42,058 nt of DNA, from assembly GCA_023244935.1 (NCBI GenBank), contig JAHFLJ010000003.1, forward strand, positions 1 to 42,058, in the 5' to 3' direction. The position numbers and the translations under genes are program-made. This document shows, in pieces, positions 839 through 27,350 of this stretch (within the stretch, counting starts at the first letter, position 1; each line of letters opens with the position of its first letter). The notes below the pieces were generated by a model that saw only the letters and a list, made by a program, of their open reading frames with translations, was not told the origin of the DNA and made no database searches. This DNA is from Candidatus Liptonbacteria bacterium. GTDB lineage: Bacteria > Patescibacteriota > Minisyncoccia > UBA6257 > 2-01-FULL-56-20.

Positions 839-866
839 TTGACAGATTGGTTATACATGGTATAAT
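839..866 (+). promoter_or_regulatory. Sigma70-type promoter for non-coding unit 1
   Basis: TTGACA (839-844), 16-nt spacer, TG-n extended -10, TATAAT (861-866). Confidence 0.85.
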
Positions 867-872
867 ATCCTC

Positions 873-1810
873 ACTTTCGCTTAAGGAGGTAACTCATAGC
901 GAAGTAGAATTTTGAAAAGAAGGGAAAAGTCAGTCTATCAGGCCACGACCCACTCGAAGTACTAATCGTGCCAGAGGAGGGGCTATGCCCGAGATAACTG
1001 GGGCTGTCAGGTAGGCCGCAATTACCTGGGAGGTCGGCTGAGGTCATCGACGACCTAAGACCTCGAAGAAACGTTGCAGCTTCAGCAGCTGTGACACAAC
1101 CAAAAATTCGACGCGTGTCACCCCGGAAAAAACGGAGGGATAATGACTCGAATGACTGGGGCCAGCTAGGAGGGCCAAAATACTCCTGGCCGAACCGGGT
1201 AGGGAAGTTTACTTCCACAATGGTTCGAACCTGCTTGACGCTGGGCTGGCTAGTCCTCGGACAAAGTCAGTGCCAGGAAAAACTCGCCGAGTGAAAGGTA
1301 AGCGTGAGAAAATTCGGTTAGGTTCGCCGCTGGTAGCGACGGCGTAAAACATTCGGTACATCATCCGCGAACTCGAACTCAGCCAGGGTGACTGAAGTCT
1401 CCGCTCGCGGCGGGGCCGCCGACATGCCCTCCCCGAGGGAGTCGTCACGCTGGTTCCGGTGGGTGCAGCTCTCCATCTAGATGCAAAAGCTGCAAGGATA
1501 GCACTTTGAAGAAACGTTCGGCGCTGGTACCGACGCCATTAGCAGCCTAGCCGGCTGTTCGGTACACCACATACCAGGGGCCCTCTCCTCGTCGACCGGC
1601 GAGGAGGTCAGAGCGATGCCCCCCAGACCAGCCCAAAGCTGGCCTTAACGCGAGCAACAGGAGTTTGAAACCATGAGGTTTGTCCCTCCGCGACGTATCC
1701 CTTTCTTCTGGAAAGGCGAATGGTCCCGAGAGACACCCTTGGTGGATATTCCACGGCCTTAAGAGGCTAAAGCTCGCAACCGCCCCGGCCCCCAGAAATG
1801 GGGGCTTTTT
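873..1810 (+). ncRNA. Putative large structured non-coding RNA, unit 1 (~940 nt, family unassigned)
   Basis: Bounded by consensus promoter and terminator; no convincing long ORF; GC-richer than flanks; dense hairpins, e.g. GAG-GTAA-CTC 886-895, CAGGTA/TACCTG 1008-1028, GTGACAC/GTGTCAC 1091-1121, GCTAGGAG/CTCCTGGC 1165-1190, TGCAGC/GCTGCA 1464-1494, CTCCTCGTC/GGCGAGGAG 1585-1606, CCTTTC/GAAAGG 1700-1716. Confidence 0.65.
1787..1810 (+). terminator. Rho-independent terminator of unit 1
   Basis: GCCCCCA-GAAA-TGGGGGC followed by TTTTT. Confidence 0.88.
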
Positions 1811-1817
1811 ACTACTA

Positions 1818-1845
1818 TTGACAAATAAAATGTATGTGCTATAAT
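1818..1845 (+). promoter_or_regulatory. Sigma70-type promoter for non-coding unit 2
   Basis: TTGACA (1818-1823), 16-nt spacer, TG-n extended -10, TATAAT (1840-1845); starts 7 nt after the unit 1 terminator. Confidence 0.85.
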
Positions 1846-1851
1846 ACTAAT

Positions 1852-2440
1852 ATCCTCAAAGAAAGGGGTGATGCCCACAAAGCATAAGCACTTTAAAAGG
1901 TAGATAAAGCAACCAGTCAAAGTCCGCAAGCTCCGGCTCAATCGAACGGCTCCATCCTCAATTAGGGATTGGACGCCGAGAGTCGGATGATCGTAGCGCC
2001 TTCCAAACGAAACGGAGGGCACGGGGTCAAGCCCGAGAAGAGCTCGAAACTCTACTTGGGAAGTCCTTCGCAAGTAGCGGGGGCAAGGCGTGGTAATGAC
2101 TCGATTGACTGAGGCCGTCAAGCAGGCCTAATTGCTTGAGAGGTTGACTGGAGTCGCATACATTTGGTTCATGAACCGGTCGCGACTCTAACCTTAAAGA
2201 TTTGCCTTGCGGGTCAGTCCCTGCATGCGCACAACCCTTCCACCGGCTGGTGTGGCGGAAACGCCTAAGTCAGCTGGAATCGAGGACCCCAACAGTTCGA
2301 CCAGGGGCAAATGGTTGAACAGAAGGAAAGCATGACGCTTTCATCTTCGCCGCTCGCGCCGACGGTATAAAATATCGGTGCTTCAGACGCAAGCATGTGT
2401 ACATGCCGTTTACCCCCTACGTCAATGGGGGTATTCTTTT
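1852..2440 (+). ncRNA. Putative large structured non-coding RNA, unit 2 (~590 nt, family unassigned)
   Basis: Promoter- and terminator-bounded; no + strand ORF of 60 aa or more in the track; hairpins GCCTTCC/GGAGGGC 1998-2020, ACTTG.GAAG/CTTC.CAAGT 2054-2075, TCAAGCA/TGCTTGA 2118-2139, nested AGGTT..GAGTCGC..GGTTC/GAACC..GCGACTC.AACCT 2141-2194, GGCG-GAAA-CGCC 2254-2265, GAAAGC/GCTTTC 2326-2342, GCGCCGA/TCGGTGC 2356-2381. Confidence 0.65.
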
Positions 2441-2467
2441 ATTCATTCGCCAAGCAGGCGTTTTTTT
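2411..2467 (+). terminator. Tandem intrinsic terminators of unit 2
   Basis: TACCCCC/GGGGGTA + TTCTTTT (2411-2440), then CGCC-aagca-GGCG + T7 (2448-2467). Confidence 0.75.
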
Positions 2468-2511
2468 ATTTCCACAAGTAGTATTTATATTTACCGTGGT
2501 AAACTAAATGC

Positions 2512-3150
2512 ATGGAGGTAATTCCGGCAATCAATTGTCATTTAAATGATACCGAGTGCGTAGAAGCAAAAGTTAAAACTGCCGAAATTTTGGACGGCTG
2601 GGTTCATTTAGATATCGCCGATGGAAGATTCACATACAATAAAACATGGAATTCACCGGAGGAGTGGCGAAGGTTCGGTAAAAATCTGAACTTGGAAGTT
2701 CACTTAATGGTCGAAGAGCCACTTGAGGCGGCACGCGAATGGTTGCTGGTTGGCGCAAAGAGGATAATAGTTCACCTGGAAGTTTTAGATTTAGATTTAG
2801 CCGACAGAATTATTGCCTTGGTCAAGCAATACAAAGCTGAGCCGATTTTGGCGTTTAATCCGGAAACTAGAGTCGATTCTAATCCGGATATCGAGTCGCG
2901 ATTTTTATCGTTTTTAGTGTTATGTGTCCATCCTGGCCTTGCCGGACAAAATTTTTTACCGCTCAATCTCGAAAAAATCTCCGCGCTAAAGAAAATGTAT
3001 CCGCAAGCAACTATAGAGGTCGACGGGGGAGTGAATAAAGATACAGGAGCATTGGCTAAAAAAGCCGGCGCAAATATTCTCATCGCCGCCTCCTATATCT
3101 TTGAAAGTAGTAATCTGCAGGGTGCGTATCAAGAGCTAGTCTCACTTTAG
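2512..3150 (+). CDS. rpe: Ribulose-phosphate 3-epimerase
   Basis: HLDIADG, EVHLMV, V.PGLAGQ.F and EVDGGVN motifs. Confidence 0.93.
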   Translation: MEVIPAINCHLNDTECVEAKVKTAEILDGWVHLDIADGRFTYNKTWNSPEEWRRFGKNLNLEVHLMVEEPLEAAREWLLVGAKRIIVHLEVLDLDLADRIIALVKQYKAEPILAFNPETRVDSNPDIESRFLSFLVLCVHPGLAGQNFLPLNLEKISALKKMYPQATIEVDGGVNKDTGALAKKAGANILIAASYIFESSNLQGAYQELVSL

Positions 3151-3266
3151 TCAGCAACCTCATTTTTAAACTAGCCTTGTCTGACATACAGTATTTTTTA
3201 TTGTTTTATGGTATAATAATATCAATAATAATAACCCCCAGTCCGGGTGAAAATATAAGGTTAAAT

Positions 3267-4904
3267 ATGTCGTTTATAAAAAAAGTTTTAGGCGTGTTCT
3301 TTGTTGGAATGCTTTTAGTCGGCGGTGTCGCAAAAGCGGATAGTATGGCCGATTTGCAAGCGCAGATTACCTCACTTATGGCTCAAATAAAGGTTTTGCA
3401 GGCAAGAATAGGTGAACAGGGTGGTGGGAGTGTATCTTGGTGTCATAATTTTAATACAAACATAAGGGCGGGAGATCAGAGTTCTGAGGTTTCTGAATTG
3501 GTCAGAGCGCTTGTTAAAGAAAATTTTTTGAATCAAAACGAAATGTTTCAGGATGGGCGAAGCGAACTAAATTTCGATGAGCAGATTGCTTCGGCCGTAA
3601 CCGGTTTTCAACAGAAATACGCTAGCGAAATATTAACTCCAATCGGACTTAAATACGGAACCGGTTTTGTAGGCGTCGGAACCAGAGCAAAACTTAATAA
3701 GCTTTATGGCTGCGCCAATGTGATGCCTCCAATCGCATGTACCATGGATGCAAAACAATGCTCGGACGGAACTTACGTCAGCCGCACCGGACCAAGGTGC
3801 GAATTCGCAAGCTGTCCAATATATAAATCTTTAACCGTTGTTTCGCCGAATGGCGGAGAGACTTGGGTTAAGGGAACAACGCAGACAATCAAGTGGCAAG
3901 ATATCTCAATCGTTCCACAGTGCCCAGCCGGAGCTGATTGCGTGAGCCCTGCTCCGAAGTCATATGACATAAAGTTAGTCGCATATGCCACTCCGTGTAC
4001 CGGAAATATTTGCCCTATGTCTTTAACTCGTTTGCCATATACAATTGCGAAAAATGTTTCTGGCAGTTCTTATAATTGGGAAGCGGGTAGGATTTGGGAT
4101 GACAGCCAATACGCGCCAGCCGGAGCATATTTAGTGCAAGTTTGTATCGCCGGTTCAGATGTCTGCGACTCAAGCGATTCATATTTCAAGATTACTTCTA
4201 TTTCGAATATAGGATTGCCAATCGTTTCCGGAGTTTCCGGTCCGACAACATTGGCAGTCGGTCAGCAGGGAACTTGGACGGTTAGCGCCTCAGATCCTAA
4301 TAATGGAAATCTATATTATTCTGTCGTGTGGGGTGATGAATCAAGCGTGCCATGCGCTTCCGGAGGTGCCTGCGCAACCGCAAGCGCTCAATATCAACAA
4401 ACCGCAACATTCACGCATACCTATAGCAATGACGGTTACTATTTACCAAAGTTTATGGTAATGAATACAAGCGGTGAGAGTGTCGCTACAACTTTAAGTG
4501 TCAGAGTGGGATCCACATCTACATCTATTCCGACACCATTAGATACAATTCAGGTAACCTATCCTCAGGCAACGATAGAATTGCTCAGAGGGTCGATGGT
4601 AAATCTTTCTTGGACGCAAAGTAATGCTTCGAGGAATGTTGACTTGAAGCTTACCTCCGCCGGTGGTATGACTAATTTTGCCTCGTATAATATTGCTTCC
4701 GGGATAGCTCCGAAAACAATTAAAGATCAGACATATTCTTGGACTGTTGGGAATATAGTCTCAGCGGCTGTTAGCACAGCCTCAATACCGGACGGCGAAT
4801 ATTATTTCAAAGTTTGTTACTCCGGTACGGATGTTTGCGAATCCGGTAAATATACTCTTAAGATAATCCCTCTTAGGACCATACTTCCTCCCATACAGCA
4901 GTAA
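3267..4904 (+). CDS. Secreted multidomain surface protein (signal peptide, coiled coil, peptidoglycan-binding-like domain, Cys-rich module, Ig/PKD-like domains)
   Basis: Start moved to ATG 3267 (MSFIKKVLGVFFVGMLLVGGVAKA signal peptide); AVTGFQQKY...GTGFVGVGTRAKLN PG-binding-like motif; CTMDAKQCSDGTYVSRTGPRCEFASCP; LTVVSPNGGETW; YSVVWGDE...FTHTYSNDGYY PKD-like. Confidence 0.75.
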   Translation: MSFIKKVLGVFFVGMLLVGGVAKADSMADLQAQITSLMAQIKVLQARIGEQGGGSVSWCHNFNTNIRAGDQSSEVSELVRALVKENFLNQNEMFQDGRSELNFDEQIASAVTGFQQKYASEILTPIGLKYGTGFVGVGTRAKLNKLYGCANVMPPIACTMDAKQCSDGTYVSRTGPRCEFASCPIYKSLTVVSPNGGETWVKGTTQTIKWQDISIVPQCPAGADCVSPAPKSYDIKLVAYATPCTGNICPMSLTRLPYTIAKNVSGSSYNWEAGRIWDDSQYAPAGAYLVQVCIAGSDVCDSSDSYFKITSISNIGLPIVSGVSGPTTLAVGQQGTWTVSASDPNNGNLYYSVVWGDESSVPCASGGACATASAQYQQTATFTHTYSNDGYYLPKFMVMNTSGESVATTLSVRVGSTSTSIPTPLDTIQVTYPQATIELLRGSMVNLSWTQSNASRNVDLKLTSAGGMTNFASYNIASGIAPKTIKDQTYSWTVGNIVSAAVSTASIPDGEYYFKVCYSGTDVCESGKYTLKIIPLRTILPPIQQ

Positions 4905-4985
4905 TAAATAATTCAGCTTAAACCGCCAGCCTGCTGGAATCATCGATAAATACAATATTCGGGAATATTCTATAGACCATATTTT

Positions 4986-5026
4986 AAGACAGACTATTCG
5001 CTGGCAGGCGAATAGTCTGTCTTTTT
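4986..5026 (+). terminator. Rho-independent terminator
   Basis: AAGACAGACTATTCGC-tggcag-GCGAATAGTCTGTCTT followed by T-tract. Confidence 0.8.
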
Positions 5027-26651: not shown

Positions 26652-27350
26652 ATGAACGCAGTGCTCGCAAAAAAAGAATTGCATAATTGCATAAAAAGAG
26701 GTAAAGCGGAAACACTCGCCAGGTTTTTTAAGACCGGTAAAGGGGAGTATGGAGAAGGTGATTTATTTCTTGGGGTTATGGTCCCGGAAATTCGCAAGGT
26801 CGCCAAGGCCTTTAGGGCAATTAGTTTTAGCGAAATCAAGAAATTACTCGATTCTAAATATCACGAAGAACGTTTGTTGGGAGTTTTGATTTTGGTTGAG
26901 AATTTTGTGACGGGCACTGAAATTGAGAAGGAAAGAATCTACAGGTTTTATATTAAAAATATTAAGAGAGTCAACAACTGGGATCTGGTTGATCTTTCCG
27001 CCCCAAAAATCGTTGGTGGGTATTTAAATAAGAAGGATAAAAAAGAATTGGTAAGGCTCGCTAAGTCCAAGAATGTTTGGGAAAGAAGAATTTCGATTCT
27101 CGCCACATTGTTTTTTATTTCCAAAAATAATTTTACCGAAACCATAAAAATTTCCGAGATACTTTTAAATGACGAACATGAGCTAATCCATAAGGCAGTG
27201 GGCTGGATGCTCCGAGAAGTTGGGAAGAGGTCATTCTCGACGGAGGAAGATTTTTTGGCGAAAAATCATCTTAAAATGCCGAGAACGATGTTGCGATATG
27301 CCATCGAAAGATTTCCTGAACATAAGCGTTGCAAATATCTAAAAAGATAA
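26652..27350 (+). CDS. DNA alkylation repair protein (AlkD-like HEAT repeat)
   Basis: FFKTGKGEYGEGD.FLG, NNWDLVD, WERR, KAVGWMLRE.GK, MPRTMLRYAIE. Confidence 0.9.
   Translation: MNAVLAKKELHNCIKRGKAETLARFFKTGKGEYGEGDLFLGVMVPEIRKVAKAFRAISFSEIKKLLDSKYHEERLLGVLILVENFVTGTEIEKERIYRFYIKNIKRVNNWDLVDLSAPKIVGGYLNKKDKKELVRLAKSKNVWERRISILATLFFISKNNFTETIKISEILLNDEHELIHKAVGWMLREVGKRSFSTEEDFLAKNHLKMPRTMLRYAIERFPEHKRCKYLKR

Follow-up and report, generated by a model that had tools for sequence, protein, structure and literature searches.

Bacterial noncoding RNAs (ncRNAs) of more than 500 nucleotides (nt) with elaborate conserved structure are rare, and OLE, GOLLD, ROOL, and raiA each turned out to have unusual biochemistry. 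OLE, GOLLD, and ROOL are RNA-only homo-oligomers held together by kissing loops and A-minor contacts. According to a recent study (Kretsch et al. 2025, PMC12286853), OLE loop L9.3 is a symmetric intermolecular kissing loop whose tetranucleotide switches among GGCC, GAUC, and AGCU. The same study (PMC12286853) places GOLLD and ROOL in phage or prophage genomes, frequently close to tRNA islands. Here, we analyze a 42,058-nt stretch of DNA from a Candidatus Liptonbacteria bacterium (contig JAHFLJ010000003.1; the whole stretch is called the window below), in which two adjacent units, RNA-A and RNA-B, lie between rpiB and rpe and carry three copies of a small repeated module, D2. We read D2 as a pseudoknot module of real, new, structured ncRNAs and assign this structural identity a probability of roughly 0.6. 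The kind of molecule, a large structured bacterial ncRNA, is already known; the RNA family, the paralogous tandem pair with its exchanged modules read as pseudoknots, and the host lineage are new.

Like OLE, GOLLD, ROOL, and raiA, RNA-A and RNA-B are large (600 to 940 nt) and noncoding, with multiple helices, putative pseudoknots, and covariation, and they likewise have very strong transcription signals. Unlike those RNAs, they show no sequence or structure match to the corresponding Rfam families, are found in a genus of Patescibacteria, and form a tandem pair of paralogues that exchange modules. The locus also differs from those of GOLLD and ROOL, since it is situated between rpiB and rpe, with the nearest tRNAs 12.8 kb away and no true viral or phage match. 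The loops of a second module, D1, carry an invariant palindromic GGCC, one of the tetranucleotides of OLE L9.3, but without covariation in the eight D1 copies. A search of full-text literature, with supplements outside its scope, returned no account of such RNAs in these bacteria.

Other described families did not account for the locus. Among the 4,227 models of Rfam 15, only three tRNAs passed the gathering threshold over the whole window, none of them in RNA-A or RNA-B, and a permissive scan of 700-2520 gave nine matches, all with an E value of >1 and far below threshold. The model for 6S RNA had no match at an E value of ≤1 in the host genome (G000, rated 100% complete); this model matches 5 of 14 control genomes and so has limited reach. 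tmRNA carries a string of H-type pseudoknots (PK1 to PK4) on one stable RNA of a few hundred nucleotides, and the RNAs described here are similar to it in having several putative pseudoknots along the molecule and, for RNA-B, in opening with a Shine-Dalgarno (SD)-like sequence and a short open reading frame (ORF). Unlike tmRNA, they have no tRNA-like domain within 700-2600, where ARAGORN found 0 tRNA or tmRNA genes, and the RNA-B ORF is not conserved (10 versus 24 codons). The tmRNA of this genome is on contig C31 (115 bits), and its only RNase P RNA match, of 485 nt and 91.1 bits, is on contig C18 (31235-31719; locus L080); RNA-A and RNA-B are therefore neither. The RNase P RNA match lies below the Rfam gathering score of 100 and looks enlarged or divergent.

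Recurrence and pairing of the D2 module

The original prediction, made from the letters of the window, described a repeated stem-loop with a 10-nt loop at 1322-1360 and 1516-1566. Both copies are present, and a repeat search of the window (family D2) yielded a third copy of the unit at 2346-2375 that had not been listed. The two RNAs, the parts of the copies as first described, and the fold that we propose for each copy (stems S1 and S2; loops L1 and L3) are as follows:

873-1812, plus strand: RNA-A, a noncoding unit of about 940 nt, its ends placed from the promoter and terminator
1852-2470, plus strand: RNA-B, a noncoding unit of about 590 to 620 nt, with a conserved core at 2026-2216 and D1 at 2113-2139
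1322-1360, plus strand: D2 copy 1 as first described; GTTC 1322-1325, stem GCCG 1326-1329 with CGGC 1340-1343, loop 1330-1339, TTCGGTACA 1352-1360
1516-1566, plus strand: D2 copy 2 as first described; GTTC 1516-1519, stem GGCG 1520-1523 with CGCC 1534-1537, loop 1524-1533, TTCGGTACA 1558-1566
1325-1359, plus strand: D2 copy 1 as a putative H-type pseudoknot; S1 1325-1329 with 1340-1344, L1 1330-1332, S2 1333-1339 with 1353-1359, L3 1345-1352 (UAAAACAU)
1519-1565, plus strand: D2 copy 2 as a putative pseudoknot; S1 1520-1523 with 1534-1537, L1 1524-1526, S2 1527-1533 with 1559-1565 (7 of 7 pairs), L3 hairpin 1543-1547 with 1553-1557
2349-2381, plus strand: D2 copy of RNA-B as a putative pseudoknot; S1 2349-2352 with 2363-2366, L1 2353-2355, S2 2356-2362 (GCGCCGA) with 2375-2381 (UCGGUGC), L3 2367-2374 (AUAAAAUA)

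The starts of the two copies in RNA-A are separated by 194 nt, and the copies share 19 of 22 positions. As first described, 9 of the 10 loop positions are the same, and the second pair of the stem changes from C-G in copy 1 to G-C in copy 2. The ungapped repeat core scores 14 (+1/−2 scoring), a value reached by 1 of 300 dinucleotide shuffles of 868-1812 in a test that leaves out the 9-nt second block (TTCGGTACA). A further duplication named in the original prediction, that of GAAGAAACGTT, does exist (1060-1075 and 1503-1518, 14 of 16 positions) but carries no weight as evidence, because its score of 10 is close to that of the best repeat in a shuffle (mean, 9.5).

A covariance model of the module (R2) was built from seven good copies, namely, copies 1 and 2 from three RNA-A sequences and the RNA-B copy of the window. 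DNA sequences come from three loci: the window, contig C40 of a genome of the same genus (G001; locus L018), and a metagenome contig (L038). In the host genome, R2 finds exactly three sites at an E value of ≤10 (1318-1363, 1512-1569, and 2341-2385), and copy 1, copy 2, and the RNA-B copy score 69.5, 51.3, and 49.2 bits, respectively. There are two sites in G001, and the true copies of both genomes score 49 to 70 bits, with no other sites there at the same threshold. Two weaker copies that had been proposed at 1446-1461 and 1237-1255 are not recovered by the model even at this permissive cutoff, so that in place of an array of four copies there are two in RNA-A and one in the adjacent RNA-B. 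Between its D2 copies, RNA-A of the window has about 90 nt (within 1361-1515) more than RNA-A of G001 and L038; this extra stretch, which is GC-rich and hairpin-rich and includes 1446-1461, is a species-specific expansion segment.

Compensatory changes mark both stem 1 and the additional hairpin of copy 2. Across the five pairs of stem 1 in the seven copies, 94.3% of cells are paired, and two of the five pairs are doubly compensated (C-G to G-C in copy 2 of the window and G-C to U-A in copy 2 of L038), with a one-sided change from G-C to G-U in the RNA-B copy. Pairing survives all of these changes, which bears out the earlier claim of selection on RNA structure. The hairpin in L3 of copy 2 has three sequences in the three genomes, is always paired, and shows compensatory changes at four of its five pairs. 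It is present as described, but its best-supported register (1543-1547 with 1553-1557) lies one step inside the GCAGC/GCTGT originally given.

A downstream UCGGUAC is complementary to the final seven nucleotides of the loop (GUAGCGA). The loop and the TTCGGTACA block would therefore be two strands of one helix, stem 2, and the 10-nt loop, although conserved, is probably not the free binding site for which it had been taken. In the RNA-A copies, stem 2 is paired at six of seven positions around a central G-G (1336/1356 in copy 1 of the window), and six of the seven positions pair in all copies that have letters there. The G-G has become C-G in copy 2 of the window, giving 7 of 7 pairs. The RNA-B copy also pairs at all seven positions, with U-A to C-G, A-U to G-U, and G-G to C-G relative to RNA-A. 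Taken alone, stem 2 has 89.6% of its cells paired, with one double and one single compatible change, and its variation comes essentially from one paralogue. The whole module with stem 2 included has 92.9% of 98 cells paired and seven doubly changed pairs, a degree of pairing and covariation reached by 0 of 500 shuffles; controls in which the partner strand was slid pair at no more than 50.5%.

The module thus laid out consists of an S1 of 4 to 5 base pairs (bp), an L1 of 3 nt (CUG), an S2 of 7 bp abutting S1, and an A-rich L3 of 8 nt, and the two stems have no nucleotide in common. Loops of 3 nt over 7 bp and of 8 nt over 4 to 5 bp fit textbook H-type geometry. We take stem 1 and the L3 hairpin as shown, infer stem 2, and therefore the pseudoknot, and favor an H-type pseudoknot over a hairpin with a free loop. 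In the proposed fold, three nucleotides (CUG) would cross over from stem 1 (the 4 to 5 bp of the original prediction), and the other seven loop nucleotides would pair with the downstream UCGGUAC as stem 2, stacking on stem 1. The 8-nt A-rich linker (UAAAACAU) would then close the knot, and in copy 2, this linker would carry the extra hairpin. Minimum free energy (MFE) predictions restricted to nested structures choose stem 2 in copy 2 (1516-1568) and in the RNA-B copy and stem 1 in the remaining copy, which in these models shows that both helices are competitive and nothing more. Two other pairings were rejected. Pairing of the loop to D1 (CUGG/CCAG and UAGC/GCUA) amounts to just 4 bp, and a register resembling a tRNA D arm (CGC/GCG) conflicts with the very changes on which the stem as first described rests.

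The hairpins might instead present an unpaired 10-nt loop (CUGGUAGCGA) to a protein, for example, a dimer, with TTCGGTACA as a separate single-stranded element and no pseudoknot, as originally envisaged. The loop is nearly invariant in the six RNA-A copies, the G-G in five of the seven stem 2 helices fits recognition better than conservation of pairing, and GGUA occurs in both loop and tail, where it could represent two copies of one binding motif. Conservation of sequence would be expected of a protein site, however, whereas the RNA-B loop has changed at 4 of 10 positions, with matching changes in its tail that leave all 7 positions paired. In G000, moreover, the insert is not accompanied by any candidate RNA-binding gene. 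We regard this version as rather unlikely, and our guess is that D2 does not act as a set of free loops recruiting a protein.

Several points weigh against an H-type pseudoknot in a structured RNA. The central G-G mismatch of stem 2 stands in five of the seven copies and is repaired in two, and the variation in this stem is slight, coming from one paralogue (RNA-B) plus one G-to-C change. The D2 copies are related to each other and were chosen and trimmed by the analyst, and they come from three loci with DNA, to which a fourth known as a protein translation alone can be added. Isolated D2 modules fold no better than shuffles (z scores of −0.2 to −1.1) in folding programs that score nested structures and not pseudoknots. 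RNA-B of G001 has no D2 copy, and D2 is therefore dispensable for RNA-B. Finally, the RNA-library evidence presented below consists of contigs, which show neither strand nor true ends and could include DNA carry-over.

Two transcription units between rpiB and rpe

Whichever fold it adopts, D2 is very probably part of a real, structured ncRNA. The gap between rpiB (248-718) and the rpe-type gene (2512-3150) is 1,793 nt long and contains no long plus-strand ORF, and the GC content of this insert is 0.53 to 0.64 versus 0.42 for the whole window. In addition to the elements listed above, it holds the following features:

839-866, plus strand: promoter of RNA-A; TTGACA, 16-nt spacer, TG, TATAAT (12 of 12 positions of the sigma-70 consensus, with the extended −10 TG)
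905-1083, plus strand: 5′ domain of RNA-A, paralogous to the RNA-B core and including D1′ (1002-1029)
1160-1190, plus strand: D1 of RNA-A; GGCC, A, then an 8-bp hairpin whose loop starts with palindromic GGCC followed by AAAAUA
1509-1775, plus strand: 267-nt piece from RNA library X6, with adapters on both sides; seen in one run and as contigs alone, and thus a hint and not a mapped RNA end
1787-1811, plus strand: intrinsic terminator of RNA-A; 8-bp stem (1787-1806) with 6 GC pairs, then a T run
1818-1845, plus strand: promoter of RNA-B; 12 of 12 positions of the sigma-70 consensus plus TG
2414-2431 and 2448-2470, plus strand: terminator-like hairpins of RNA-B; the first from a terminator scan, the second a short GC stem with TTTTTTT read by eye

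All five complete units from the window, L018, and L038 have promoters with 12 of 12 consensus positions plus TG and have terminators, with tandem terminators ending the units of L018 and L038. Both RNAs fold better than their shuffles, with MFE z scores of −4.1 for RNA-A (0 of 20 shuffles as good) and −4.6 for RNA-B (0 of 100). Helices outside D2 covary as well. Between the RNA-B core of the window and its G001 orthologue, the two-sequence RNAalifold structure has 55 pairs, eight of which are doubly changed with the pair kept. For RNA-A of G001 and L038, 197 of the 305 pairs of the G001 MFE structure are unchanged, 27 have one-sided compatible changes, 12 have double changes, and 69 are broken; controls with the partner shifted by 1 or 2 columns gave 0 to 3 double changes versus 12.

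The same pair of RNA-A sequences bears on whether the region encodes a minus-strand protein or a decayed gene, in which case the repeat would be a duplicated peptide motif. Antisense to RNA-A, stop-free frames run for 303 codons in G001 (L018, 61-972) and 217 codons in L038, lengths matched by 1 of 500 and 0 of 500 shuffles, respectively. When the antisense frame was compared with 5.8 billion proteins, its matches were three ORFs, called by gene callers at loci of these same RNAs; the matching ORFs from other loci align over 37 to 40% of the query. Against a gene, the longest such frame in G000 is an ordinary one of just 131 codons (150 of 500 shuffles do as well), and the 303-codon frame has no Pfam match. 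In the alignment of G001 and L038 (967 columns, 755 identities), no indel out of 14 has a length divisible by 3, and the mismatches spread evenly over the three codon phases (52/60/56), a flat distribution that covers the frame. The promoters and terminators, moreover, face the plus strand. We rejected the antisense protein on these grounds and consider it very improbable. The depletion of stops on the antisense strand of RNA-A, where gene callers have annotated these frames as proteins, is unexplained.

Parts of 868-2475 are present in 19 listed runs of 14 studies, mostly groundwater and freshwater DNA, with two RNA libraries among them. RNA library X6 has three contigs at 100% identity (994-1509, 1509-1775, and 2117-2317), and RNA library X15, from another study, has one (2118-2324, with five differences and two gaps). 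No contig of the RNA runs covers 1-993, 1776-2116, or 2325-5000, and these uncovered parts carry no weight on expression. DNA runs X5 and X7 added no new sequence variation within the RNAs.

The contig ends may bear on RNA processing. The X6 contig at 1509-1775 has a depth of 29.1 versus 9.8 for its neighbor at 994-1509, and the neighbor likewise reaches adapter at 1509. A large number of molecules in the library thus seem to have ended at 1775 and between positions 1508 and 1509, 7 nt upstream of copy 2. In RNA-B, the contigs of the two studies begin 1 nt apart, at 2117 and 2118, a point that a DNA contig crosses, and this pattern counts as a weak hint. For the processing sites proposed at the modules, there is a hint alone, from two contigs of one RNA library that end on adapter at 1508/1509. 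A paired cut of the RNase III type at 1508 and 1775 was considered and dropped, as the flanks pair over only about 5 bp and with the wrong offset.

A possible cut just before copy 2, together with repeated pseudoknot units, recalls the ToxI antitoxin RNAs of type III toxin-antitoxin systems, in which pseudoknot units are cut by, and inhibit, an endoribonuclease. By this analogy, a cleavage site could fall at a unit boundary here too. The D2 copies, however, are neither tandem nor identical; they lie 194 nt apart inside large unique domains, the next gene is rpe or the other RNA, and the insert in G000 has no toxin gene. We give an antitoxin RNA almost no credence. A functionless chance repeat in GC-rich spacer DNA would agree with a family that is tiny and confined to one genus, but it deserves equally little credence in view of the 1-in-300 shuffle result, the compensatory changes in two other genomes, the consensus promoters, and the presence in RNA libraries.

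The position of the units raises the question of rpe control. The rpe gene starts 41 nt past the last RNA-B terminator, with no strong promoter seen between them, and aptamers commonly fold as H-type pseudoknots; a giant cis-acting leader (a riboswitch or attenuator) of rpe might thus be formed by RNA-B or by the insert as a whole, with the pseudoknots as aptamers. D2 does match the topology and loop lengths of H-type aptamer and frameshifting pseudoknots with an A-rich loop 3. Unlike those, it has no Rfam riboswitch match and lies deep inside terminator-bounded RNAs and not in a leader or coding region. In G000, rpe adjoins RNA-B, but in L038 it adjoins RNA-A (the G001 contig ends after RNA-A), and a promoter-like site with an extended −10 precedes the rpe gene of L038. 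Tandem terminators end each unit, and relatives express rpe directly behind rpiB without such a leader. We therefore hold a leader to be improbable.

The RNAs constitute an insert into a conserved gene pair, since the 1,793-nt gap compares with 1 to 149 nt in 23 of 25 family loci (324 and 791 nt in the others). These 25 were the loci with rpiB on the same strand among 29 fetched around rpe from the family, and no related RNA was found upstream of rpe in any of the 29. In a few family genomes, the spacer has taken up other DNA: L076 (710-1500) has a 174-codon ORF on the other strand, G001 (L018, 1690-2333) has ORFs of 98 and 111 codons, and L055 (1177-1500) has a 324-nt gap. The rpiB-rpe spacer may be a recurrent insertion site.

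Some sequence details at the ends of the units were also noted. At 882-890, near the start of RNA-A, a perfect SD-like TAAGGAGGT sits within the first hairpin (875-903) with no start codon after it; RNA-A of G001 and L038 lacks this sequence at the 5′ end. The sequence is reminiscent of the 5′ "stabilizer" SD sequences of Gram-positive mRNAs. In RNA-B, 1862-1903 includes an SD-like AAAGGGGTGAT and an ATG (1871) opening the ORF of 10 codons in the window and 24 in G001. The SD sequence, ATG, and a Pro codon are conserved between G000 and G001, and the remainder differs by 2-nt indels. The same segment can also form a covarying hairpin (GGG/CCC versus AGG/CCU). On contig C17 of G000 (27037-27066; locus L002), 30 nt are 90% identical to the RNA-A terminator region (window 1780-1809), probably reflecting a similar terminator elsewhere in the genome.

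Shared modules and distribution

The host RNA is modular, as the original prediction inferred. A covariance model of the RNA-B core (R1) matches RNA-A at 905-1083 over its full length (23.8 bits; E value, 6.4e-4), and the 5′ domain of RNA-A is therefore a paralogue of that core. RNA-A has D1 at 1002-1029 and 1160-1190, and RNA-B has it at 2113-2139. All eight D1 copies from the three loci fit one layout: GGCY, an L1 of 0 to 1 nt, an S2a strand of 6 to 8 nt, GGCC, an A-rich stretch of 4 to 7 nt, and a fully complementary S2b strand. The eight copies have eight distinct helix sequences, while the loop GGCC is invariant and without covariation. In the upstream GGCY, the sole variation is C to U, which keeps a wobble pair with GGCC. 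The D1 loop GGCC could pair with this GGCY to give another H-type pseudoknot or could instead kiss the loop of another D1, which is conceivable because GGCC is palindromic.

RNA-A precedes RNA-B in the window, and the order is reversed (B-A) in G001 and L038. Modules are exchanged between the RNAs: the D2 copy of RNA-B in the window, with its 5′ flank, is closest to RNA-A copy 2 of G001 (84% over 43 nt), and RNA-B of G001 lacks D2. RNA-A and RNA-B are built of duplicated and exchanged modules: D2 (the putative pseudoknot), D1 (a hairpin or pseudoknot), and the shared core domain.

The insert was found in one Patescibacteria genus among the genomes searched, and elsewhere it was not found in those searched. 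A BLAST search with 868-2475 against 40 relatives and then 125 family genomes identified G001 as the sole relative; the other matches in family genomes were in G118 (in coding DNA) and G103. R1 matched G000 and G001 alone among 125 family and 151 order genomes, and R2 gave nothing genuine outside the genus among the same genomes plus 151 phylum genomes. The best R2 matches outside the genus score 16 to 24 bits versus 49 to 70 for true copies, and the six examined (five from the family, one from the phylum) lie within long open frames.

Exact-pattern scans gave 27 loci in metagenome contigs, one of them genuine (L038), 4 in genome contigs, one of them genuine (L101, with the same sequence as the G001 locus), and 4, 3, and 0 in three sets of viral contigs, none genuine. 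BLAST searches of plasmids and phages returned no match, and G000 has no further copy of RNA-A or RNA-B. A fourth locus is seen only as a called antisense ORF (P0002), which is identical or nearly so over all modules and adds no variation. These results are to be read knowing that R1 rests on two sequences (effective number, 1.07) and is close to a sequence search, that the pattern scans find exact matches only, and that the genomes are samples of their groups. The narrow distribution, a weak point, constrains the statistics of covariation, and these RNAs may be no more than a peculiarity of one lineage.

Possible roles in an ornate RNA

The size of RNA-A and RNA-B, their consensus promoters, their density of putative pseudoknots, their palindromic loops, and the absence of a partner gene liken them to the "ornate" RNAs. 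By analogy, we offer the tentative guess that D2 is a rigid architectural element of large RNAs whose folding, and possibly assembly, yields a defined particle. D2 may also cap a stable processed 3′ piece, which is again a guess.

A bolder proposal, which we regard as a long shot, would make RNA-A and RNA-B the first self-assembling RNAs of the ornate kind in the candidate phyla radiation, forming a hetero-oligomeric particle that is RNA-only or RNA-rich. In such a particle, the D1 GGCC loops would kiss symmetrically within and between the paralogues, and D2 would provide rigid corner pieces. The particle would be abundant, would differ from the homo-oligomeric OLE, ROOL, and GOLLD, and would have been gained as a 1.8-kb insert by one genus of ultrasmall episymbionts. 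The sole lead to oligomers of the OLE, GOLLD, and ROOL kind is the palindromic GGCC in all eight D1 loops, a feature of sequence.

A genome of 0.7 Mb (712 kb in 31 contigs) here devotes 1.6 kb and two promoters of consensus strength to a pair of RNAs that match no described family. As a paralogous pair with exchangeable modules, RNA-A and RNA-B are a natural experiment in the growth of large RNAs by duplication.

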